From Octopus vulgaris (taxonomy: Eukaryota), in assembly GCA_951406725.2 (NCBI GenBank), contig OX597828.1:9858001-9922000 (forward strand): a DNA stretch of 64,000 bases. The letters are read 5' to 3'. Under the pieces are notes generated by a model. It had not been told where the DNA came from, searched no databases, and saw only the letters and a program-made list of their open reading frames with translations. Positions 9,186 to 63,655 of the stretch are shown here, piece by piece; within the stretch, counting starts at the first letter, position 1; every line of letters starts with the position of its first letter. A program made the translations under genes and the position numbers.

Positions 9186-9305
9186 GAGACGATATGAAAC
9201 TCAGGAAAGAGACGATATACAAACTCAGGAAAGAGACGATATACAAACTCAGGAAAGAGACGATATACAAACTCAGGAAAGAGACGATATACAAACTCAG
9301 GAAAG
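9186..9305 (+). repeat. 24-bp minisatellite (AGAGACGATATACAAACTCAGGAA) x~5
   Basis: Near-perfect tandem units directly visible. Confidence 0.95.
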
Positions 9306-9311
9306 AAAGAC

Positions 9312-9813
9312 AAACGAAATACATATTTTTTTCCTACCCACAAGGGGCTAAACACAGAGGGGACGGACAAGGACAGACAAACAGATTAAGTCGATTACAT
9401 ATCTGGTAATGCGTAACTGGTACTTATTTAATCGACCCCGAAAGGATGAAAGGCAAAGTCGACCTCGGCGGAATTTGAACTTAGAACATAACGGCAGACG
9501 CAATACATATTTCTTTACTACCCACAAGGGGCTAAACATAGATGGGACAGACAAGGACAGACAAAGAGATTAAGTCGATTACATCGACCCCAGTGCGTAA
9601 CTGGTACTTAATTTATCGACCCCGAAAGGATGAAAGGCAAAGTCGACCACGGCGGAATTTAAATTCAGAACGTAGCTTCGGACGAAATACCTATTTCTTT
9701 ACTACCCACAAGGGGCTAAAACAGAGAGGACGAACAAGGATAGACAAACGTAACGGCCTGACAAAATACTGATAAGCATTTCGCCGGTCATGCTAACGTT
9801 TCTGCCAGCTCGC
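9312..9813 (-). mobile_element. SINE family B, tandem multimer (head plus repeated ~182-bp bodies)
   Basis: Repeated cccacaaggggctaaac...gaccccgaaaggatgaaaggcaaagtcgacc...ggcggaattt units; head-like end gctaacgtttctgccagctcgc at ~9792-9813. Confidence 0.85.
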
Positions 9814-12086: not shown

Positions 12087-12150
<64 letters not shown>

Positions 12151-12275
12151 CTCCCGAAAGAAGGACAAAAGAAAAATTCTAATGCCAAATATGCCGAAAA
12201 AAAGACAAAATTGTCAATAACCATTATAATTTGTGTCTCGAAACAAACCGATAGAAATTTCTATAAAATCCGTTA

Positions 12276-12336
12276 TTACCGTATTGGTCCCAATTTCGGG
12301 GTTAATTCATAAGAATTTTCCCCTCTTCAGCGATAA
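12276..12336 (-). ncRNA. Type-I hammerhead ribozyme (family H1), intact core
   Basis: rc: ttatcg-CTGAAGA-gggg aaaattc ttat gaattaa cccc-GAAA-ttgg ga ccaa-TA-cggtaa. Stems I, II and III all pair; AUA cleavage triplet. Lies in a ~390-bp unique segment (12150-12540) bounded by (TA)n. Confidence 0.85.
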
Positions 12337-13469
12337 ATTCGTATGACATAAATGAAATACTTACTCATACCCATGGAAAAAGCAAGCACTAAGTCCTGAG
12401 CAGACCTAAGTACCCCAAATATATCCAAAATAGAAAATCTTCGGCACATCTCGAGAGACGTGTGATTCGAACTAGAAACTTTCACAGAGTGAGAGAATCC
12501 GGAAGTGAACACTATTAAATTTTATCCTACATTAGTTGTGTATATATATATATATATATAATCAAAGGACAGTATTTCTACCTGTCGGAAATAGCAGTCA
12601 AAACTCTTATTTAAATCGTCAATAAATATAAGTATATGTATATGCATGTATGTGTGTATATCTGGTGTATATGTACACATTAAGGCGGTCGTTTGAACGA
12701 TACGAAATACTTGCATTGGTTGTATAAGAATTAAATTCTTATGAGTTTCATCTTCATCATTGTTCGACCGTGGCCTAGACAATGGAATTTACTACGTTAC
12801 ACCAGACTTCACGGTCCATCATAGCATTACGGAGGTCCTGTTGCTGGATGCCTGTATCCCTGGAGATTACATCAGGGTAGGAGAGTGTAATTTCGTCACA
12901 TTTTGTGACATCATGACTGACATTACCTCATTCGTCTAGCGCGGGTCTCATTCTCAAGAAATTTTTGTCACCTCTATTTATCTTTAGGGACGAATTTATG
13001 TGGGCACAGTCATGTGTGCATGCAAGTTTTCCTTTGTGTTTGTGATTGTGTCTGTTTGCTTCTGTATGTGTGTATGCATGTGTATTTATGTATGTATGTG
13101 CTTGTGCATATAGATTTATATATGAACATGCATATGCATGAATACACACACACAAACAAGTACATATATATGTCTGTGTGTGCACGCGTGGGTGTGTATG
13201 TTTGTGTGCATGTCTGTTTGTTGGTAGGTATGTGTGTATGTTGGTCTGTGTGAATGTGTGTGGTACTGGAGTGCCTGAAAACAAGATGCTTAGAGGCCAG
13301 TACGTTCTGCATGTTTCTACGTCCGTAGTTTCGAATCACACAGGTATTCCCTCTTTTGTTTTACCATGAGCACGGTGCTACATTATATGTCGCTCCATTC
13401 TAGACAGTTGAAATTAAATATGATAACGGTGCATTAGTTAATTCTGTATTTCGGCCAGTTGTCAATATA

Positions 13470-24857: not shown

Positions 24858-25526
<669 letters not shown>

Positions 25527-25757: not shown

Positions 25758-26560
25758 AGTAACAATAAAGGGTGAAATTAATTAATTTGGAATAATTATT
25801 AATTACACCAAGTAGATTTCGGCATGTAAAAGCCTCATTCGAGGAAAATTTAAGTAATACTAAGCAATTAAGGGTTTAACAACGAATTGCCTCACCACAC
25901 ACCGAATTTAGAAATAGCAGTCAAAGGGTTATAGCTATTTTTTCTACTAAAAGGGAGATCTCAGTAAAAATACAGCACTTGAATGGCAAACACAGACAGG
26001 TAAGAGAGAATGAAATGACGGCAATCTATCATACAATTTTAAGTCACCTACGGACGTACGTTTCGAAATCAAGTTTTAGGAAAGCATAAGAATTAGATAA
26101 TTCTACCTTACCCAAACTTCTTTTCTCATCAGCGTAGGATACTACAATTATGAATAATTGTATATTAAATTTTGAGATACTAGAAGGCATCGTCTCAACT
26201 CAGTGTCAGAGCGAGCCAAAGCATTACCAGTACCACGAAATTCAAAGTGTGAATGAAAGTTTGTGTCACCAGCCCCTTTCCACCCGCGTGTAGCCAAGAC
26301 AAGATGCTGTGGTCATTTACTGGGATAAAATATGGTTATCAGTAACAATAAAGGGTGAAATTAATTAATTTGGAATAATTATTAATTACACCAAGTATTT
26401 CATTCTCTCTTACCTGTCTGTGTTTGCCATTCAAGTGCTGTATTTTTACTGAGATCTCCCTTTTAGTAGAAAGAATAGCTATAACACTTTGACTGCTATT
26501 TCTAAATTCGGTGTGTGGTGAGGCAATTCGTTGCTAAACCCTTAATTGCTTAGTATTACT
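25758..26560 (-). mobile_element. Hammerhead element family H3: 583-bp monomer with 57-bp direct repeats and 164-bp inverted arm
   Basis: 25758-25814 = 26341-26397 (direct); 25853-26016 is the near-identical rc of 26397-26560; (TA)n on both flanks. Confidence 0.9.
26047..26138 (-). ncRNA. Minimal type-I hammerhead ribozyme (family H3), intact core
   Basis: rc: cctacg-CTGATGA-[long stem II gaaa..aagttt..gaatta tc taattc..aaactt..tttc]-GAAAC-gtac-GTC-cgtagg. Perfect 6-bp stem I and palindromic stem III. Confidence 0.92.
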
Positions 26561-28252: not shown

Positions 28253-30117
28253 TATATATATGTGTGTGTGTTTGTGTGTGTGTCTGTATGTGTATGTGTG
28301 TGCGTGTGTTTGTGTTTGTGGGTACGTGTGTAGGTTTGTTTGTATAAGTAAGCTTGTAATACAAATATGTTATCACAGTCAAACCCTTAGGGTTCTTCCT
28401 ACTAAACTCGTTGGCGTTAAATATAGTTGCAAGAAGAATATTTAACGAACTACAAAAATAGTTCTTATATATAACTTAAAATGACGAATATTTAATAAAA
28501 AAGCTTTCGAAAATGAAAATATTAGGTATAATTTATTGAATAATATTTAGAACTTCAACTCTTTAATATCTTTCAAAATATGAAGAAAAAAATTAGAATA
28601 CAAAAATCCACCTAAATTATTTCGAACGGAAATTTGAAATCCTGCGAACTATTTACGTTTCAAATTTTTAAACATATGTTTTCTTTTGTTTATATTGTGA
28701 AATTTAGTTACAGTTTCATAAATTAAAGGAAGCGTTACTGCTCAGTAAATAGCTAATACTAATTCTACTGAATATCGAAAATGTGATTATGATAAAAAAT
28801 ACCGTTATTATATTTACAAAGCTTTATGATCATTCAGAAACTTTAGTAGCCAAATCGAACTTTAAATGTAATTTTATTGTTTGCTAAGCGATTGTAATCG
28901 AATAGCAAGTGTTTGCAATATTGCGCAATGTCATAAATGTGTTAGCTTAGTAAAGTTTGTGAATAACATAATTTAGAGCTGATAACTACCAGCTAAATAA
29001 TGCTATAGCTTAGCCTCAGACGTTTGTTTCGTAATTGCCGAAGCCATTATTATTTCGTTAACTAGCCGTTTTTTTTTATATCTCCATCAATTTGATTTCG
29101 ACAATATAGCTAGGAAAGAGAAAATATATTATTTGGTTTGGGATTGAAAACCTGCAAATTGAAGAATATTCTCATGGAAAATATAAGGAAAAGTTCAAAT
29201 ACTTGTATTTTACATTACATGAATTATATTGTGAAAATGAGAGAAACATTTGAAAACGTAATTTAGTCCTACTAAATTATATCTATTATGTTATCATCGT
29301 ATTAGTCGTTAAATAGTCAAGCACTCGAAATCGGCAATTACAAATGTTGAAGTGTTTTATATATTTAAAGCCAATGAGATTTACTATGCTTCTTAGAAAT
29401 TTTCGTCGCTGGTATAGGCAGCACAGTGCAGCATCTTGCTCAAATATTTAACATCTATATATATCATAAAATATAATAGGACGTCGTTACAATTTCAAAA
29501 ACAAACTTTTTCACTATATTCCAACAAAATCTTTTACTTCCCAAAATAAAAAATGAATGACAAAGAGCGATGCAACTGGTAGAATGTCTAGAGCTTTGTT
29601 TAATTTGCTTTGTGACATTTGTTCTAGTTCTATAATGCTTATGTTCAAATTCTACTGATGACATCTTTCTTTAGACCATTTCAAAAACAATGAATAATTT
29701 TCTAGTCTAGTTCTTCACATTCCATTCAGTTCGTATTCTATCTTTTTGCTTCACATTCTGAAAGAAATCAGTTCCTGTCAACCCTTGAAATAGATGAGCT
29801 TCATCAGAGATGAAATTACTCAAACACTTCGTGTGTAACTATGGTGACTTTGCACCTCCATTGCCATTTTGAGAACCCAAGGAAAGCAAAGTATAGTAGA
29901 ACATTGGATAATACATTGACCCAATGATTCATTGGTACTTTACGGTACCGATCTCTGAATGCTAACAGGCGGCAACATAGATTCCGATGGGACTCGAAAC
30001 CTGAACGAAAAGTGATGCTGAGATAATTCAATAATTCCACAATTCATTTAGCTAGGCTGATATCTTTATATCATATATTATTATTTTGTTTTAATGTAGG
30101 CTTCTATATATATCTCT

Positions 30118-30340
30118 TTATTACCCACAAGGGGCTAAACACAGAGGGGACAAACAAGGACAGACAGGGGTACTAAGTCGATTATATCGACCCCAGTGCG
30201 TAACTAATACTTAATTTATCGACCCCGAAAGGATGAAAGGCAAAGTCGACCTCGGCGCAATTTGAACTCAACGTAACGACAGACGAAATACGGCTACGCA
30301 TTTCGCCCGGCGTGTTAACGTTTCTGCCTGCTCGCCGCCT
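30118..30340 (-). mobile_element. SINE family B, monomeric full copy
   Basis: rc begins ggcggcgagcaggcagaaacgttaacacgccgggcgaaatgc, contains gagttcaaatt (B-box-like) and gactttgcctttcatcctttcggggtcgataaa. Confidence 0.85.
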
Positions 30341-30654
30341 TGAAGGCTTCTATATCTGAGATATAAAGAGACGAACAGGGTAGATATAAATGAGTTAGTG
30401 TGATTTAATATGTTTTCACCTGAGACAGCATTAAAGATTCAAGTTTGAATATTATAAGGCATAGCCATGGATTGGAAATTAGGAAGTTGTCTGCGTAACC
30501 CTGGGCATCGAAGTCACTCAAGCTACACATAAAAAAGGCAAGTGTTACGATGCCTTCTATAACATGCCTTGCATTAACTAGCACCTTTTGTGTGAAATTT
30601 CATGAATAGAATCACATGTATAAACGCACTATATTTAAATATATATATTTATTT

Positions 30655-31046
30655 ATTTATTGCCCACAAGGGGCAAAACATAAAGGGGACAAACAAGGCC
30701 AGACAAATAGATTAAGTGGATTATATCGACCCCCCAGTGCGTAACTGGTACTTATTTAATCGGCGCCTAAAAGATGAAAGGCAAAGTTGTCCTCGGTTGA
30801 ATTTGAACTCAGAACGTAGCAGCTGACGAATAACCTATTTCATTACTACCCACAAGGGTCTAAACACAGAGAGGACAAACAAGGACAGACAAATGGTTAC
30901 GTCGATTACATCGAGCCAAGTGCGTCACTGCTACTTAATTTATCGACCCCGAAAGGATGAAAGGTAAAGTCGACCTCAGCGAAATTTGAACTCAGAACAC
31001 AGCGGTGGACGAAATGCCACAAAGCATTTCGCCCGGGGTGCTAACG
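30655..31046 (-). mobile_element. SINE family B, one head plus two tandem bodies
   Basis: Two cccacaaggg... units (30663, 30849) and one head ending ctgccagctcgccgcc at ~31046. Confidence 0.85.
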
Positions 31047-33404
31047 TTTCTGCCAGCTCGCCGCCTTATATATATGGATACATATACATACATTCATACA
31101 TAAATACATACATACATATGTATGTGTGTGTATGTTTGCGCACGTATGCGTGTGTGAATATAGCACATGTTTTCCAGAGGACAACTTCTTACATCGAGCA
31201 ATTAAGCAAACATTTTATTATGTGCTCAATAAAATATATAAAGGATGTGAATCTTACATTTTTGCTATGACTGTGATGAAAGTGGAAGTATGGGGCTGGA
31301 TTTGAAATCCGATAGCTATTCCATAGGATACATATTGCGGCAAATGCTTTAGTTATTATATCTATCAGCTTGCCTGTATATGCCTATCTGGGGGTAACAG
31401 TTTCGTAATTTTAAATCTTAATTGAATACGATTCCTTCCAAGTCGGATTTATATCGTCATTATAAAAACAGTCAATGATAGATTGAGATCGAAAAATCAG
31501 TAAAATACTTGGTATGTACGTTGATATAATTGACTAATCCCTTTTATGAGGTTGCAAAAACTTGCTGCAGCTTAATGAATAAAAGCAGCAACAGTAAAAA
31601 CATAACGCAAAATGTATGAATATATTTTGAAGTTTTATTGGAAAATGTTCAATTCTGTGAAAGATAATTTCATATTTTTTTTAAAGTTTTCCCTAGTGTT
31701 TTGTTCAAAACCTGCAGTATATTATATTTGAAATATAATCGAAAATTTATTTAATTATCTCACTGTAGTTTTACAGCTATCATTCTATAAAAAAAACAAC
31801 TATATATTTAAATAGTCCTTTAAAATGTTACAACTAATGAAATTGGATGTGAGGAAATTGAATTATTCAATGCGATGAAAAATAGAGAAAAACACTCGTA
31901 ATGCATACTTTTCTTGATGAAAAGTTTCAAACAATATATCATTTAATATGTAAAGTTCTTTGATTTTTTTACAGATCAGCGCTCCTAATCAAAATTCGCC
32001 ACCTATCAACATGTGTCTAAATATCTATTTTATGCACGCTCACACGCACATGCATACACATGTAGACACTGCCATAAGCATACAAAGGCTCATGTGTATA
32101 TATGTAAACATATAGATATCCATCCATCTGCACATACATAGATATGTATAGGCACACGTATATATATGTATATATATGTTGGGGGTGAGTGTGTGTGAGT
32201 GTGTGTCTCTAATACGTATGTATAAATAAAATGATTTACCTCAAAATTTAGTTTTCATCATCATGAACAAAGACGTAATGGCGCATCATTACAGAGTGAA
32301 CATAAGAGACATGGAGTCATTTATGGCAGTTAATGTTAACCTGGGATATTGCATAAGGACGCCAGAATGCCGCATGTTTAATTCCAGTCTACTCCTATTA
32401 CAGTCTTTGGGCAGATAAGAATATATAATAGGCAAATACTTTAAATGTACTTTGAGACATATTACCAAGACATATAGAACAACTCACTGTGCCAAGGAAA
32501 GGGAACTCAGAACGTAGAAACGAAGGAAATGGCGTGAAGCACTTTGTTTCACCTGCAAACGATTCTGCCCGTCCGCCAACTTAATATCACCTAATATTAA
32601 TAATATTATAGGTAATAAATTAGGACATATGTCTTGCAAACAGTTGCACATGCAAGTGCTACCAATCAAAATCTCCGCATACCGGAAGCCAGCAAGTGTA
32701 TGGGATCACCAGGACAGAATGCGCGCCGTTTCGGGGCCTACCTCGAGGGGCATCAAGGAACACCGGCTGCCCTCACTGATATGAGGCCCACTTGCGAGAT
32801 CAGCTGCTTATTAAATTGAAATGTAGCAGTATGTGAAACAGGTGGAGCAGGAAATATTTACTCAATCTGAGTATATACCGTATAGTAACTTTTAGATATT
32901 ACGATTTATATAGTATAATGACGGAACTTATCCAACCAACAGGGCTTGGAATAATCTTTCAAAGGTTTCTCTTAAGTTATGTACAGCAAGCAACCTGTGT
33001 TGGCAATGATGAGTGAATGCATATATTGTGTCATAGCTCTGTAAACCAGAGAGTAAACTAGTTTCTTATTGCAAGTCATGGCTTATCGAACTTGCTTAGT
33101 TGATGTAAACGATATATTAGGGATGTAAAAAGATTAGAGGCGAAATTCAATTAGAATCCAAAGTCAAAGTACTAAAACATATGTAAAATGTCACCAATCA
33201 TGTTTAACACTAATCGTCTGTAAGTATACCTCACTCTGACTCTCCATGTATGTGTGAATATGTATATATATATATACACAAATACGTATATATACATGTA
33301 CTCACACACACAGACATATGTATTGGGAATAAGATAGGGTACACACATATACGTCTATATGTATGTTTATTTTGTATATTATACATAATTATATGCATAA
33401 AACA

Positions 33405-39837: not shown

Positions 39838-40343
39838 GCCCTCTATATAATATAAATAAATATTTTCAAGTTGAAAAAATTTACAGATTTTCTCTTACGA
39901 GGTTTTTTTCACGCTAACTACTTGATAATTTCTTATGAAGATTTTATCCTATTTTTAAATTTATATTTTTCACCGGAACAGTTCAATACTGAATTTTTGT
40001 TCCGAGTAAGCACGTTGTTACCGAAATGCAATTCGAAAAGCCCGCCATTTACATAGATGTGTAGGGATGAACAGTCCTATATGCTGCGATGGACACTGCG
40101 GTTGCTCGTCTCGTATGTTGTTTTTGTTCATTCATATATATCTTGAATTCGTTGTACTGAAGAACATAAAATGCAAATACTGCATTGATTGCGAAATCAC
40201 AGGTGATATTAACTAAATTATGTTTTTAAATGACTCGCTTCGAAGATTGCATTCGGTACAATTTGTTTATTTTGGTAGTTTTGACTTTAAAAGTCCCTCC
40301 TAGCGTGCGGCATTTATGTGTAATAGTGCCCTGTATATAATAT
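39838..40343 (+). mobile_element. Hammerhead element family H2, complete ~490-bp monomer with short terminal direct repeats
   Basis: Starts GCCCTCTATATAATATA (39838) and ends GCCCTGTATATAATATA (40328). Hammerhead core at 40151-40213 (CTGAAGA...GAAA tcac ag gtga TA) with damaged stems I and II. Confidence 0.85.
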
Positions 40344-40383
40344 ATACATATATAAATATATATATATGTATATGTATATGTAT

Positions 40384-43692: not shown

Positions 43693-44531
43693 ATATGTTT
43701 ATGTATGTATATTGCGTGTGCACGTGTACATTCGCTCGCTAGATTGAGCTAGTGCGTATGCTTTGTGACATTTATACACAAGTTATAATGTGAATGGATA
43801 TATTGTAATTCAACTAATATGAAGCTAAAAGAGAAATCCAATTTGCAGTCACGAAAAGTGTTGGCTTTGTTTGCGGAGACGTGTCTGTATATATATATCT
43901 ATGCCCGTGTACTATTATAATTGTGTTTCAGTGTGTGTATCTATATGCAAGTTGATAGTTCGTGTATGTGAATGTGTACTTCGGAAGGAGCGTGTGTAAG
44001 AGATTTTGGTACACAAAAGCAGTAGCAATCCAGATCATTGGAAGCCCATAAGGTAGTCTAAAGCCGGAAACAGCATTTCTAAGCTATGGACATTTATTAC
44101 GATGCATCTCTTTTCTATCCAATAACACCAAGTAAATAACAGCTGGCAATTGTTGCAATGAACTGGCTTATAACTGTACAAAAATATTTGGATCTTCACG
44201 TATCGAAATAGTATTGTTACTATAAAAATTCTAAACATCTGAGATGATGGTTAAATTTTATTACATTGAATTAGTTAGACTTAATTTATACCAATCCTAT
44301 AGTTACACCAATCATTAAACAAGGGCAATGCTGGAGCAATTGCTTCAGGTGTTTTTAGTCTACCACTTTGACATCAGGAAATATCTTTCAAGTTTGATAC
44401 TAATTTTATCTGGCCTTTTACTGAACTGCTAAGTTACGTTGGTGTAAACAAACTAGCATCAATAACATCGGTTGTTAAGCCATGGTGTGAGCACAAAGGC
44501 TATCACAAAAACACACATCCCTTTACATATA

Positions 44532-44584
<53 letters not shown>

Positions 44585-44588
<4 letters not shown>

Positions 44589-45137
44589 GCCCTGATGCAG
44601 TGCCAGGCAGTGGCTCTCATGGCTTCTGATCTTAACTGATTGGAAGTGTTATCATGTACATTGTTTTGTCTTGGTATAAAAGATGGGTTATAGCAAATAT
44701 TCTGCTCAATACCACAGATTTGCTTGTCAGTTGTTTGTAACCAGTTGAGAATGTCCTTTAGTGGCTGACGATATGTGCATCTCTGATCACGAGCAGAAGT
44801 AGTGGGGGAGCATCATAGCCATGTGTTGAGAGGATTCTTTGGGGTTTGAATAATTCACCTCTGGAAACATGGGTGGTTCTTTCAACATCCTTAAACAACC
44901 CTTATTCAGGGACCTTTTGAGCGGGATGGGCTACTCAACCTGAAGAAAATTCTAACTGGGCCCCACCTGCAAGGTCATGTGCTGTTTATCTTGATATGAG
45001 ATCACCATGTCGCGCACATATGGTTGTGATGCATGTGCCTGGTGTACCTTTATCAGACGGGTAGTCATGATGGGTATATTGGGCTTCGTATATTTTACCC
45101 CAGTGTCACTTTGATGGCATGCACTGCTCTCTCACTC
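44585..45137 (+). mobile_element. Family E: ~550-bp non-coding element embedded in (TAA)n
   Basis: Three copies in the window (44585, 48305, 62990) with the same 3' end (ctgctctctca) and (TAA)n-type flanks on both sides. Strand is nominal. Confidence 0.85.
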
Positions 45138-45151
45138 AATAATAATAATAA

Positions 45152-46068
45152 TAATAATATCAAGGTAATAAGAATTATAGAATTTTTTACTACCAGTGGT
45201 CTAGCGCAAAAAATTTAGTCAATAGACTATATATTATTCCTATAAAATATCGTGTACATTAAAACACATTAAGAGGCTTCCATCATAGGAAGGCCTTGTG
45301 CTAGAAAGAACAGTTAATGTTCAAGCCACTAATTAGGGATAAATTCTCGAGGGAAATGAAAAATAAAAATAATTACCATCTAATTTATTTCCCGGACCAT
45401 GGTTTCTGATTTATTTCAGTAAAATAAAATTTACTGAGGCCGTTTTCTTCAGCGGGTAGCCTTAGATTAAATATACACACAACGAGATCGCATGTAAATT
45501 CATTGTTTGTACATTCTAATTTTTTAAAATCCACTGCGCAGTCGCAGTCTATTGTCGGCAACAGAGAGGATGCGGTAAAACCTCGAACATGTGTTTTAAT
45601 GTACACGATATTTTATATACAGTCTATTGACTGAATGTTTTGCGGTAGACCACTGATAGTAAAAATTTCTATAATTCTTATTACCCTGATATTATTAATT
45701 ATGTTTAATGATTTTTGGTAAATTTGTTCGACTTTTTACCGGCATCCTCTCTGTTGCCGACAATAGACTGCGACTGCGCAGTGGATTCGAAACATTAGAA
45801 TGTACAAACAAGGAGTGCACATGCTGAATTGATCTCGTTGTATGTATATTTTATCTAAGGCTGCCCGCTTAAGAAGACGGCCTCAGTAAATTTTATTTTA
45901 CTGAAATAAGTCAGAAACCATGGTCCGTGAATTGAAATAGATGGTAACTGTTATTTTTCATTTCCTTCGAGAATTTATCCCTAATTAATGCCTTGAAATT
46001 TAACTGTTCTTTCTAGCTCAGGGCATTCCTATGATGGCAGCCTCTTAATATGTTTTAATGTACACGAT

Positions 46069-46075
<7 letters not shown>
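45152..46075. mobile_element. Hammerhead element family H4: 459-bp monomer plus near-full-length inverted, permuted copy
   Basis: TGTTTTAATGTACACGATATT at 45592 and 46051 (direct repeat); 45152-45589 is the rc of 45725-46070 joined to 45592-45697. Confidence 0.9.
45391..45456 (-). ncRNA. Minimal type-I hammerhead ribozyme (family H4)
   Basis: rc: cccg-CTGAAGA-aaacggcc tcagtaaa ttttat tttactga aataaatca-GAAAC-catg-GTC-cggg. The plus-strand paralog at 45864-45929 has a mutated core (CTTAAGA). Confidence 0.8.
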
Positions 46076-46140
<65 letters not shown>

Positions 46141-46383
46141 CATATATATATCCACACATATTATAAACATATACACATGTGTGGGGGGTGTAGATATAAG
46201 CGAGTCTGTGCGGTTCAGTGTTCAGTACCACTGCATGGAACTTTGCGCTAGTGTCTTGTACTGTATCCTCGGGACTTGCGAGTGGATTTGATTGACAGAA
46301 ACTGAAAGAAACCCGACGTATACGCACCCACGCGAGCGCTGAAACACACATATCCACACATACACACACACACGCGCATGTAC

Positions 46384-48304: not shown

Positions 48305-48858
48305 AAATGCCATGATGCAGTACCAGGCAGTGGCGCTCATGGCTTCTTATCTTAACTGGCTAGAGGTGTTATCATGCACATTGATTTGTCTTGGTATAAA
48401 AGATGGGCTACACCAAATATTCTGCTCAATACCACAGATTTACTTGTAAGTTGCTTGACCTTAACGAGTTGAGCATGTCCCTTAGTGGCTGATGATAAGT
48501 GCACCTCTGATCCCGACCAGAAATAGTGGGGGAGCATCATGGCCATGTGTTGAGAAGTATTCTTTGGGGTTTGGATAATTTACATTCGGAAACTTGGTTG
48601 TTTCGTTCAACCTCGTTAAACAATCCTTATCCAGGGAACTTTTGAGTGGGATGGGTTACTCGACACGAAGAAAATTCTAATTAGGCCCCACCTGCAAGGT
48701 CATGCGCTGTTTATCTTGATATGAGATCAACATGTCACTCACATAAGGTTGTGATGCATGTGCCTGATATGCCTCATTAGACGGGTAGTAATGATGGGTA
48801 TACTGGGCTTGGTATATTTTACCCCAGTGTCACTTTGATGGCATGCACTGCTCTCTCA
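48305..48858 (+). mobile_element. Family E copy in (TAA/TGA)n
   Basis: Full-length homology to 44585-45137. Confidence 0.85.
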
Positions 48859-56425: not shown

Positions 56426-56977
56426 TCTATCCCTGATGGTAGGCGTGGTTGTTTAGTAAGATGGTTTCTTTCGAACAACATGGTTCCATGTTTAGTCCTA
56501 CGTTACTCCTTGTGTGAGTGGCTTTTTAAACCAGACGATGTTTTGAAAAGACACCCACATACATTGCATATCTGTTTTGGACCAGCATGAGTTGCAGTTA
56601 AGTTCTGATTTGTGTGGATCTTAAAATATTATTTACGGCTTCCATTAGATTTGCAGACCTTATGACATACATAGCATTGATAAGTATTCGCAGACAGATA
56701 AGCTGAGTAGTTGGTGGAGGTTCGTTTTTCATGGGTCCGCAGAAGTGAAAATCATGTTCTATCACAAATTGTACCCACAAAAAGATGGCTGGAATTCATT
56801 TTGTCATTGATCGTAGTATTTTTCTTTAAATTTCTTTTGAGATTCGCATGAATAATCGTAGCTCCTTTTGGGTTTCTTTGTGTGTGTGTTTTACGCTATG
56901 AATTTACATTTAATGTGTGTCTTTATAAACATAATTATAATTATAAATATGTTTTAGTGCGTGCTAATGTTTGTTTC

Positions 56978-57957
56978 AGTAATCTATATGCTGTGAGTCA
57001 ATGGGCAGACAGAAACAAAATGCAACTGAATGAGGGAAAATTTGAGCTGATGCATTTTGGAAGAAATTCCTCACTAAAACAACCATACTCTCTTCCTTCA
57101 GGGGAACCGCTCATAGCCTCTAACAATATCAGAGACCTGGGTGTAATTGTTGATGACGATCTCAGTTGGAGTGCACACATCAGCAAGAAGGTCGATATAG
57201 CTCGTAGGATGAGTTCCTGGATCTTAAGAACTTTCCGGTCCAGAGAACAAGGTGTCATCATACCACCTTTTTCCTCCTTTGTACGGCCACACCTCGAATA
57301 CTGCTGCCCACTGTGGTCTCCTCACACAAGACAAAACATCTCCAGAATTGAGTCACCCCAGAGGGCACTCACTAAACGAATTGAAGGCATGGCTGCTCTC
57401 GATTATTGGGATCGCCTTAAAGCCTTGAAACTTTACTCCCTCCAGCGTCGCCGTGAGCGGTACATCATTTGTACGATGTGGAAAATATACCGCCAACTTT
57501 GCCCAAACGACCTAAACATTAGCTTCAAGGATCATCCAAGACTTGGACCACGGGCTATACGTCCCCTGCCCAATTCAAGATCAGAACATACATGTACACT
57601 GCAACATAATTTCTTTTCCTCAACAGGCCCTGCCCTATTTAACATTGTCCCGAGGGAGATCAAAGAGGAAAAGGATCCCATTAACTTTAAACAGAGTCTG
57701 GATAGATTCCTTCAAAGAATACCAGATAAGCCACCCATAATTGGATACAACTCACCCAACAATAACTCACTACTTGAACAAAACTGGATACAACTCACCC
57801 AACAAGAACTCACTACTTGAACAAAGCTTGACTTAAACAAAACTTGACTTAAACAGGATTCGAATAATCCTATCAGGTGGTGCTATTAAGTTAGACATGG
57901 CCTGGACCAATCTTTGGTCGAAACATATCTAAGTTTATCTAAGTTTATCTAAGTTTA
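56978..57957 (+). mobile_element. 5'-truncated CR1-type LINE (RT C-terminal region, 3' UTR and tandem tail)
   Basis: Open frame to 57820 with WADRNKMQLNEGKFELMHFG, IRDLGVIVDDDLSW, FVRPHLEYCCPLWSP and YWDRLKALKLYSLQRRRER; 3' hairpin gaccaa/ttggtc and tail (ATCTAAGTTT)3. Confidence 0.93.
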
Positions 57958-59710: not shown

Positions 59711-59764
<54 letters not shown>

Positions 59765-59767
<3 letters not shown>

Positions 59768-61105
59768 CAAAAAGAGATAACAAAGTCACGCCTGTGAGGA
59801 GTTTCAGGACATTTATAAGAAAAGAGATATAGATATAGCCTCACAACCATTTCTGGGATATCATGGATGTCCCTTCATCAGAGACGATGTGAGATGGTTA
59901 AATAGAGGTAAATGATTGAGTTCGAAATAAGGAATTATTATGGAAAAGGAGGAGATTATATATAGAGGGAAATAAGAGAAAGAAAGTAGAAATAAATTCA
60001 TAAATCTTTGTGGTTACACTTCCATTATTTGTATATTGTGGTGTGTAGAAGTGGTAAAAATGTTTCTTGTACACGGTGTGTAAGTTCCATTAGTAGTTCA
60101 TGTTTAGTCATTTCAAAGTATGTAGCCATGGATTCTGTGTTGCTTATTCCAAGGTATTTTGTGGTGTGAATGAAAATTTGAGAATGTATTAGTAGTATTT
60201 GTTGATAGATGGTGTGGCGGGGGTAGAGATGTATACAATTAGAATGAGGAGGTAGTTCAAAGTGAAGACAGGAATAGAAAATGGGAGGAAGAAAGAGAGA
60301 AAAAGAAAAAATAACAATAAAATAACAATAACAATAATAACAATAACAATAATAAAAAGAGAGAAGAAAGAAAACATTAAAAAAGGGTGAAAGAAGTAAG
60401 AAAGGGAGTGTTAGTGGTGGTCAAGATAATGTGAAGCGAGGATGGGAGGGAAGTAGGGAAGGGTGGATAGGAAGAGATGAGGAGGTAAAGAGTGAATAAA
60501 TGTGAGATATATGAGTAGGGGTGATGTGATAGGGCTGTATTAAGGGATAGGTAGAGAAATGATATGGTGGAATGATACCAAATTGAGTAGTAGTTTTAGT
60601 ATTAAAATTTAAAGTGGAGGGAAGTAAAGGATTTCAAATTTATAAAATAAACCTATGCGATAGGTTAGTGAGATTAGAGATGAATAAAGAAGGTATAATG
60701 ACATACGTACGCGTATTCCTGCATTCACTTTGATCTATCTCTTCATTCTAATCATACACATCTCCCCACCCACGTCTATCAACAAATACTACCAATAAAC
60801 TCTCAAATTTTCATTCCCACCACAAAACACCTTGGAATGAGGAACACAGAATCCATAGCTCCATATTTTGAAATGACTAAACATGAACTACTATTGGAAC
60901 TTATATACCATGTAGGGGATTAATTTTTAACGCTTCTATAGACCGCTATACTCAAATAATGGAATTGCAACTACAATGTTTTATATTTTATTTCTACTTT
61001 CATTCTCTTATTTCCTTATTTTTAACTCATAAAATTACCTCTATTTAACCCTCTCACATCGTCTCTGATGAAGGGATATTCATGATATCCCAGAAACAGC
61101 TGTAA

Positions 61106-61107
<2 letters not shown>
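59765..61107. mobile_element. Hammerhead element family H5: two diverged copies as a large inverted repeat
   Basis: ~59840-60277 is the rc of ~60715-61107 around a purine-rich spacer; (TA)n on both outer flanks. Confidence 0.85.
61062..61107 (+). ncRNA. Minimal type-I hammerhead ribozyme (family H5)
   Basis: tct-CTGATGA-a gggatat tcatg atatccc a-GAAAC-agct-GTA-aga. The opposite-arm copy at ~59840-59886 has a degenerate stem III. Confidence 0.8.
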
Positions 61108-62339: not shown

Positions 62340-62790
62340 TAGACACGTTCAAAAGAGAGTCGCTTTACTATTTCATTGGCTCCAGGTTGTATTGTCCCTG
62401 AATTGGTAGAGGGAACATATTCTGAACCTTGGATTTTTGGTATTGGAGCAAATGTCTCTGTGTTGGCAAAATGTAATTTTTTTTATGGGGGGGGGGATTT
62501 TTATCTGGGATCTGTGCAGAGCTATTCTTTTACGTAGACTGTTTTTGTTTGTCCTATGTATTGCTCTTGAGACCCAGAGCAGGTTAGTGTGTATATCAGG
62601 TTCTCCGAAGCACATGTGAAGTTGCTTTTCACTGAGAAACGTTGTCCCTGTTTGAAAGAGAACTCTGATATTTCAATTAAATAGTCGCATATCCCACAGT
62701 TGGGTCTTCCGTATTTTTTTACTGACGGCTTCTGTGTTGTTGAGCGTATTCGGGCTTGTGTTATGAAACTCTTCATAGATTAGGGCTGTC
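62340..62790 (-). mobile_element. Penelope-like element GIY-YIG endonuclease remnant
   Basis: GRPNCGICDY...FTCASENLIYTLTCSGSQEQYIGQT (LIY...YIG), frameshifting into LRKRIALHRSQIK...FCQH... Confidence 0.9.
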
Positions 62791-62989: not shown

Positions 62990-63655
62990 CAGGTAGTGGC
63001 TCTCATGGCTTCTGATCTTGACTGAATGGAAGTGTTATCATGTACATTGTTTTGTCTTGGTATAAAAGATAGGCTACAGCAAATATTCTACTCAACACCA
63101 CAGATTTGCTTGTCAGTCGTTTGACCTTAACCAGTTGAGCATGTCCCTTAGTGGCTGACGATATGTGCATCTCTGATCACGAGCAGAAGTAGTTGGGGAG
63201 CATCATAGCCATGTGTTGAGAGGAATTCTTTGGGGTTTGAATAATTCACCTCTGGAAATATGGGTGGTTCTTTCAACATCCTTAAACAACCTTTATTCAG
63301 GGACCTTTTGAGCATGATGGGCTACTCAACCTGAGGAAAATTCTAACTGGGCCCCACTTGCAAGGTCATGTGCTGTTTATCTTGATATGAGATCACCATG
63401 TTGCGCACATATGGTTGTGATGCATGTGCCTGGTGTACCCTTATCAGACGGGTAGTCATGATGGGTATATTGGGCTTCGTATATTTTACCCCAGTGTCAC
63501 TTTGATGGTATGAACTGCTCTCTCACTCAATAATAATAATAACAATAATAATGACAAGAACAACAACACCATCGAATATACCTTAGGAATGAGAACCCAG
63601 GTTCGAAATTTCCCCCAAACCTCTGATGTATGCTGGAGGGCATATCAGCCGCAGA
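62828..63655 (+). mobile_element. Family F copy with 5' inverted segment, interrupted by family E
   Basis: 62830-62882 is the rc of ~63563-63615; 62883-62899 (ttccatgcagtgacctc) matches the head/TAA junction of the 40485-40840 copy; tail CTGATGT atgctg...cagcc GCAG. Confidence 0.65.
62990..63528 (+). mobile_element. Family E copy, slightly 5'-truncated, in (TAA)n
   Basis: Homologous to 44603-45137. Confidence 0.85.

Follow-up and report, generated by a model that had tools for sequence, protein, structure and literature searches.

Architecture of the foldback locus

The window, which here means the whole 64-kb stretch of DNA that was analysed, consists of AT-rich animal DNA that is rich in microsatellites and repeat fragments. 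Positions 45152-46078 form a foldback, whose two arms were found by self-comparison to meet at base 45589 (Table 1). The two copies of the direct repeat that bound the right arm lie 459 nt apart and are identical at 29 of 31 positions (E = 2e-7 in the window). This agrees with the first-pass annotation, which had described the right part as one monomer with terminal redundancy at 45592/46051, as both positions are in register inside the 31-nt repeat. The GC content of the 459-nt unit is 35%. When aligned to a doubled unit, as that annotation had suggested, the left arm is collinear across the unit boundary and covers positions 137-582 with 86.6% identity (E = 2e-159). Since the last ~15 nt of this alignment are AAT repeats, the true end of the left arm can be assumed to lie near unit position 567. 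The left arm thus continues over the boundary and ~108 nt into the next unit, and it stops ~28 nt short of a full unit. Its earlier description as an inverted copy that crosses the monomer junction is therefore correct, but it is not a whole monomer. The missing segment (unit positions ~110-136) is single-copy in the window, where it was sought beyond the interposed repeat as well as throughout the remaining sequence, and because it is missing from the left arm the unit length of 459 nt is set by the right arm alone. Altogether the locus comprises 1.07 units plus an inverted 0.94 unit, with the second hammerhead on the opposite strand, and is not a same-orientation tandem. No other copy of this family is present in the 64-kb window.

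Table 1. Features at the foldback locus and in its flanks (positions refer to the window; a dot marks features without strand).
Feature	Position	Strand	Remarks
(TA)n, then (ATA)n, beyond the ~550-bp repeat	44521..44586	.	probably the left half of the (TA)n tract that was the target
Unrelated ~550-bp repeat flanked by (AAT)n on either side	44589..45159	.	on AT-rich outer end of left arm; two further copies in the window, 88% and 95%
Left arm	45152 (about)..45589	-	inverted, 5'-truncated, unit positions 137 to ~567; 3' end outward
Intron-like GT...AG, left arm	45301..45376	-	76 nt; candidate by sequence
Left minimal type I hammerhead	45391..45456	-	GUC site 45395; helix I (4 bp) and core preserved; helix III palindromic; base of helix II lost (45444, 45410)
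Head-to-head junction	45589..45589	.	single base A common to both arms
Right arm	45589..46078	+	459-nt non-coding unit plus 31-nt terminal repeat; 3' end outward
31-nt direct repeat, copy 1	45589..45619	+	unit start
Unit segment unique to right arm	45698..45724	+	from self-comparison
Right hammerhead	45864..45929	+	GUC site 45925; G5U at 45870; helix I disrupted, base of helix II preserved
Intron-like GT...AG, right arm	45944..46016	+	73 nt, branch-point-like motif, 19 nt past cleavage site; candidate by sequence
31-nt direct repeat, copy 2	46048..46078	+	counterpart of PLE tail; 123-153 nt past hammerhead cleavage site
(TA)n target microsatellite, right flank	46073..46151	.	from sequence

The foldback, which had been annotated as ~920 bp long and built from two 459-nt monomers, is real according to both folding and self-comparison. 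However, its stem measures ~350 bp (45241-45585 paired with 45726-46076, 90% identity) around a loop of ~140 nt, and not 460 bp. The left arm overhangs the end point of the right arm by ~77 nt and this overhang is a repeat of the central loop; for the outermost ~90 nt of the left arm (45152-45240) the right end offers no partner, and only the loop is available for pairing. The folding energy of the foldback is -536.6 kcal/mol compared with -189 ± 6 kcal/mol for 20 shuffled sequences, and the perfect runs of the stem extend over 44, 33, 21, and 21 bp. The arms differ by 37 substitutions as well as by indels, including those of 6 and 9 nt, and the substitutions are spread uniformly over the two aligned segments (30 of 316 and 7 of 109 bases, i.e., 9.5% and 6.4%; Fisher p = 0.43). 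As the folding goes far beyond that of the shuffles and the arms have collected substitutions and indels, the foldback is neither due to chance nor an echo of the assembly.

At the left end, the ~550-bp repeat is presumably a later insertion. Its copies in the window (44589-45138, 48309-48858, and 62990-63532) are 86-95% alike and each lies inside (AAT)n, and judged by its sequence the repeat looks like the end of an AAT-targeted retroelement.

Hammerhead motifs and intron-like stretches

Both arms contain a type I hammerhead motif composed of a 4-bp helix I, the core, one unpaired A, a helix II that is long and interrupted, GAAA, helix III as an 8-nt palindrome, and a GUC site. The core motifs, CUGAAGA at 45452 (minus strand) in the left arm and CUUAAGA at 45868 (plus strand) in the right arm, are 416 bp apart. 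They show the features of the minimal hammerheads described for Penelope-type elements (PLEs; PMC4209133), in that helix I is short and helix II long, A9 is followed by an unpaired base, and helix III is small and palindromic. In these the G10.1-C11.1 pair is conserved (PMC4209133). At 45444 and 45410 the left copy has A in place of the G of the right copy, and its G10.1-C11.1 pair is gone; the right copy has retained this pair, with an extra A between C11.1 and GAAA. This extra A before GAAA occurs in both copies of the foldback and in an unrelated motif at 61065, and the hammerheads may represent a variant in which the base of helix II is flanked by an unpaired A on each side. G5 is needed for hammerhead cleavage, and the G10.1-C11.1 pair matters as well. 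The first-pass annotation had considered the left hammerhead to have an intact core and had expected the right one to be inactive because of G5U. G5U is indeed seen in the right copy, in which helix I is broken besides. The left copy has preserved helix I together with the single-stranded core, but its helix II lacks the base. Judged by these changes, both hammerheads are probably inactive.

A search pattern consisting of the core, an 8-nt palindromic helix III, UH, and a helix I of at least 3 bp, which was designed post hoc from these motifs, matches three times in the window with three different palindromes, and matches none of 300 shuffles of the window and none of 20000 shuffles of the left arm. 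With the Rfam models none of the seven matches in 45100-46072 (E up to 10) is a hammerhead, and for the whole window there is no hammerhead among the 150 of 162 matches listed, which are just low-complexity or hairpin matches. In neither copy does the minimum-energy structure correspond to the hammerhead fold, and according to the predicted folding a read-through transcript would bury either hammerhead in the ~350-bp duplex. Since the two hammerheads are located on opposite strands, they do not form a dimeric ribozyme in cis. The active form of a non-LTR retrozyme comprises at least two units in the same orientation, each with a complete hammerhead; with one unit plus 31 nt the foldback is not an active tandem retrozyme at its own locus. 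The locus is probably functionless.

Next to each hammerhead lies an intron-like stretch (Table 1). With a crude rule for such stretches that was set post hoc, 4.4% of 15723 background windows pass and 1.4% pass with a branch motif, and four of six hammerhead copies tested pass. A retained intron near the hammerhead is at most suggested by this. The intron of the Drosophila virilis Penelope ends 5' of helix I (PMC4209133), whereas the stretch in the foldback is located 3' of the hammerhead.

Coding content of the locus and of the window

Six-frame translation of the foldback revealed no long reading frame, and tblastn with 150 PLE-like proteins gave no match at E ≤ 1 in 45152-46078, so that the locus can be regarded as non-coding. 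With the same proteins no coding remnant was found in any of the six hammerhead loci of the window at E below 0.3. They also provided no sequence link between the 459-nt unit and an autonomous PLE, and the family motif is absent from the searched portion of the supplement of PMC8557442. A PLE endonuclease fragment is nevertheless present in the window at 62352-62779 (minus strand). It has 528 relatives at E ≤ 0.001 (HMMER), and of 12 relatives scanned 11 contain GIY-YIG and eight RVT_1; a word-index protein search with the fragment yielded 0 of 25 candidates. The sequence is a frameshifted 3' fragment of an autonomous PLE, with a zinc-finger-like CxxC linker and a GIY-YIG endonuclease, and is Neptune-like by its motif. 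PLEs have been listed in Octopus (PMC8557442).

Apart from that, no host exon was located, and Pfam searches on 150 open frames of the window (146 of the 150 longest among 369 non-repetitive frames of at least 45 aa, plus four chosen shorter ones) gave no match at the curated cut-off and one weak match (E = 0.006). An open frame of 322 aa at 56852-57820 looks by eye like the C-terminal region of a LINE protein of the CR1/L2 type, with no Pfam match. A further repeat family with a unit of 183-184 bp occurs in partial tandems at 9293-9749, 30106-30341, and 30663-31067.

Other hammerhead loci in the window

Besides the foldback, the window contains five further hammerhead loci, 12147-12540, 24921-25414, 25758-26560, 39838-40345, and 59764-61107. 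All six are in contact with (TA)n on at least one side. Four of the six have an inverted partner, in each case head-to-head with the 3' ends outward, and the arms are 90.5%, 98%, ~91%, and 77% alike. Among the five hammerhead units that were compared there is no similarity at E ≤ 0.01.

The locus 25758-26560 (minus strand) consists of a 581-nt unit with a 58-60-nt repeat (25758-26396) and a 164-nt inverted arm that is 98% identical, and is bordered by (TA)n on both sides. Its hammerhead (26047-26138) has a 6-bp helix I and an unusually long helix II region of 62 nt, and an intron-like stretch follows. This locus is a young twin of the foldback in its layout and is better material for assays than the foldback itself. 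The loci 24921-25414 and 39838-40345 belong to one family with a 490-nt unit; they are ~80% alike and differ in their end points. An inverted arm is present only at 24921-25414, and its outer end matches the 3' end of the copy at 39838-40345. At 59764-61107 an inverted pair that is 77% alike is found between (TA)n tracts, and its arms carry hammerhead-like motifs at 61065 (plus strand) and ~59880 (minus strand) with the same extra A before GAAA as in the foldback. The locus 12147-12540 (minus strand) is a single truncated hammerhead copy between (TA)n tracts with neither terminal repeat nor inverted arm. All three arms of unit length end just past one unit, namely after 459 + 31 nt in the foldback, 581 + 58-60 nt at 25758-26396, and 490 + ~17-26 nt at 39838-40345. 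As a side observation, two of the three inversion junctions examined (45586-45592 and 25034-25039) are centred on the palindrome ACATG with one shared A, which may be chance.

Relation to Penelope-type elements and retrozymes

Layout, motifs, flanks, the absent coding remnant, and the recurrence of the arrangement in the window are direct observations. The hammerhead, the 31-nt tail, the inverted 5'-truncated neighbour, the (TA)n flank, and the absent ORF fit the insertion layout published for PLEs and for their non-autonomous derivatives, the non-LTR retrozymes. A typical PLE insertion has an inverted 5'-truncated copy at its 5' end, a tail of 30-40 bp, and a bias for (TA)n, which is known for Naiad and Hydra, while Neptune PLEs have a bias for microsatellites (PMC8557442). 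The body of Penelope lies between direct repeats of 34-37 bp, and its inverted terminal repeats are variable in size (PMC2377424). Moreover, pairs of opposite-strand hammerheads at a distance of 100-700 bp have been reported for PLEs (PMC4209133). The foldback shares with the insertions of Penelope/Poseidon, Neptune, and Hydra the minimal hammerhead of type I, in which helix III is palindromic, the tail, which has 31 nt here, the inverted 5'-truncated copy, the (TA)n target, the opposite-strand hammerhead pair a few hundred bp apart, and perhaps the short intron near the hammerhead, for which an intron-like stretch of ~75 nt is a candidate. It differs from PLEs by its unit of only 459 nt and by the lack of an ORF for reverse transcriptase and GIY-YIG endonuclease, and from their hammerheads by the extra A before GAAA, which is absent from the descriptions covered in PMC4209133.

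The unit is also within the criteria for non-LTR retrozymes, i.e., a few hundred bp, a GC content below 45%, and a type I hammerhead. Like the metazoan non-LTR retrozymes (PMC7229834; bioRxiv 10.64898/2026.07.22.740005), it is a non-coding unit of a few hundred nt and low GC content with one type I hammerhead per unit, and it is a structured, dispersed monomer with a PLE in the same genome. In contrast to these, it consists of 1.07 units with an inverted 0.94 unit and has a minimal hammerhead of the PLE type; the main text of PMC7229834 does not contain the word "inverted". Animal retrozymes have been argued to be non-autonomous PLE derivatives, many of them present as monomer copies (bioRxiv 10.64898/2026.07.22.740005). 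Non-autonomous Chlamys elements such as MRC1 (PMC8557442) are comparable too, as they are ORF-less PLE derivatives with repeats of the pseudo-LTR type and a microsatellite bias. However, they are found in green algae, most of them have no canonical hammerheads, and their targets are (CA)n and (C)n (PMC8557442). Structurally, the foldback corresponds to a non-autonomous PLE derivative, and neither to an autonomous PLE nor to a MITE. We consider it likely that it is a single decayed insertion of a non-autonomous, hammerhead-bearing Penelope-type element, which is equivalent to a non-LTR retrozyme, into (TA)n. Searches of the openly accessible literature yielded no publication on hammerhead families in cephalopods and none on PLE twin priming. 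Repbase, Dfam, and subscription papers lay outside this search, and the family may therefore be catalogued already.

A model for the insertion

As the 459-nt unit has no ORF, its copying can be assumed to have relied on a protein supplied in trans from an autonomous PLE, and mobilization of the foldback by a PLE protein is very likely. The reverse transcriptase/GIY-YIG protein would nick both strands of the AT-rich (TA)n target, and each free 3' end would serve as a primer on a multi-unit or circular RNA, where reverse transcription would start internally, 153 and ~243 nt downstream of the hammerhead cut. The resulting two cDNAs of 490 and ~438 nt would then be joined at one shared base, with their 3' ends to the flanks and their 5' ends meeting. 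Later, the AAT-targeted repeat would have landed on the left end, while the arms drifted ~9% apart and the ribozymes were damaged differently. The purified PLE protein of a lizard cuts and extends both target strands and prefers AT-rich DNA, and it starts at two internal, non-homologous sites of the RNA downstream of the hammerhead, which bound the tail (PMC11167929).

A comparable process is known from the 5' inversion of L1 by twin priming, in which two cDNAs from both target strands are joined at minimal microhomology, as proposed here. In L1 the two arms represent adjacent, non-overlapping parts of the RNA and form no inverted repeat. In the classical case they abut on a linear template, which the arms of the foldback do not. 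Here it would be the repeated or circular template that makes the arms complementary. The unit boundary is crossed in both arms, and one linear unit would therefore be too short as a template; a tandem RNA or a circle is required. A linear tandem template would have to contain at least 2.2 units, and the arms would overlap on it by ~108 nt or leave a gap of ~106 nt; a circle imposes no such constraint. Since the two arms meet at one base and their divergence is uniform, they are most simply explained by one insertion, and double priming in one event is probable. For this reason the claim that the arms give independent support for circular or tandem templates can be retained only in part: the template must have been multi-unit or circular, but the arms probably go back to one event and are not independent. 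The two arms do not separate a circle from a tandem transcript, and we lean slightly towards a tandem transcript as the template.

Alternative explanations

A circular monomer RNA, generated by hammerhead cleavage and ligation, is a possible though doubtful template. The right arm would then represent one full turn with a further 31 nt copied by strand displacement; the left arm would go back to a second priming on a circle. The three full-length arms in the window, which all stop 17-60 nt past one unit, mildly favour circles. Kilobase-long copies of Penelope, however, also consist of the body plus direct repeats of 34 bp, and these have been credited to resolution by the endonuclease or to two initiation sites (PMC8557442, PMC11167929, PMC2377424). 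The hammerhead cut lies inside the arms, so that a cleaved linear monomer would need ligation or a template jump to give rise to them; in vitro, though, the main substrate of the PLE protein is uncleaved RNA, and hammerhead mutants have no effect on insertion (PMC11167929). As circles, three of the units fold better than their shuffles (z = -3.1, -5.4, and -4.9), as do two of 18 control windows at z ≤ -3, but with n = 3 and with a folding energy that is blind to the difference between a circle and a tandem transcript. Circles have been proposed for PLEs (PMC4209133), and circular retrozyme RNAs have been shown in coral, mussel, and axolotl (PMC7229834).

It is improbable that the arms are two separate insertions of the same family in opposite orientation, with one beside or inside the other, or that one arose by a later inverted duplication of DNA. 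The ~9% difference and the several indels between the arms would agree with separate events, as would the arms at 59764-61107 with only 77% likeness, and PLE proteins are able to cut their own terminal sequence (PMC11167929). However, neither (TA)n nor any other target sequence is found at the junction, all inverted loci of the window are head-to-head, and the locus 25758-26560 has the same layout with almost identical arms. Furthermore, chance adjacency is unlikely for a family that has no other copy in 64 kb.

It is very improbable that the locus is a DNA transposon of the MITE or foldback type, bounded by long terminal inverted repeats and inserted at TA. The inverted arms of ~350 bp would be in line with such an element, and Tc1/mariner elements target TA, which fits the TA-rich flanks. 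But the ends are asymmetric, as the left arm extends ~77 nt beyond the end of the right arm and this overhang repeats the loop, and both arms are permutations of one hammerhead unit. In addition, the copies of the comparable family at 24921-25414 and 39838-40345 have differing ends and only one of the two is inverted. Symmetric inverted termini, as expected for the TIR transposon that the first-pass annotation had named as the case against its reading, are absent from the locus. Finally, a foldback chimera of the assembly can be dismissed, for although PLE structures of this kind do trouble assemblies (PMC8557442), the arms of an artefact would be near-identical and would not differ by 37 substitutions and indels of 6 and 9 nt.

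Double-stranded RNA and significance of the locus

If transcribed, the single insertion proposed here would be a good ADAR substrate, yet one of many such sites and not special. The earlier remark that the locus could provide long dsRNA for ADAR was conditional and appears reasonable, as the predicted stem contains uninterrupted stretches of 44 and 33 bp. Heavy editing of Penelope has been described for lizard, and for octopus a high rate of hyper-editing as well as a high dsRNA potential (PMC5625713). A footprint of ADAR in the arm differences is not significant, neither by type (11 A/G versus 6 C/T among the 37 substitutions, p = 0.33) nor by the direction of the A/G differences (8 versus 3, p = 0.23). 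A miRNA precursor was considered and rejected, as the match to the Rfam model MIR8562 reaches 54 bits at a cut-off of 211 and reflects the hairpin only.

The foldback is a decayed copy with a published layout, and its value is that of a data point on inverted and tandem PLE insertions and on the form of their template. The mechanism of inverted and tandem insertions of PLEs has been named as the next task (PMC8557442). As the units are short and non-coding, arm lengths and end points could easily be counted genome-wide, and such families could test the template question. A wider reading, to which we give little weight so far, would be that the genome holds several ORF-less hammerhead families which are inserted by a PLE protein from circular RNA by double-strand priming, with one turn plus 17-60 nt as the output and often a second arm head-to-head. 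If this is true, the genome records locus by locus the use of circles by the PLE machinery. It would then also be densely seeded with hairpins of 100-400 bp, of which there are four in 64 kb, and these could be a main source of edited dsRNA in a cephalopod host. Should many of these hairpins lie within introns that are transcribed, ADAR would have more dsRNA to handle.
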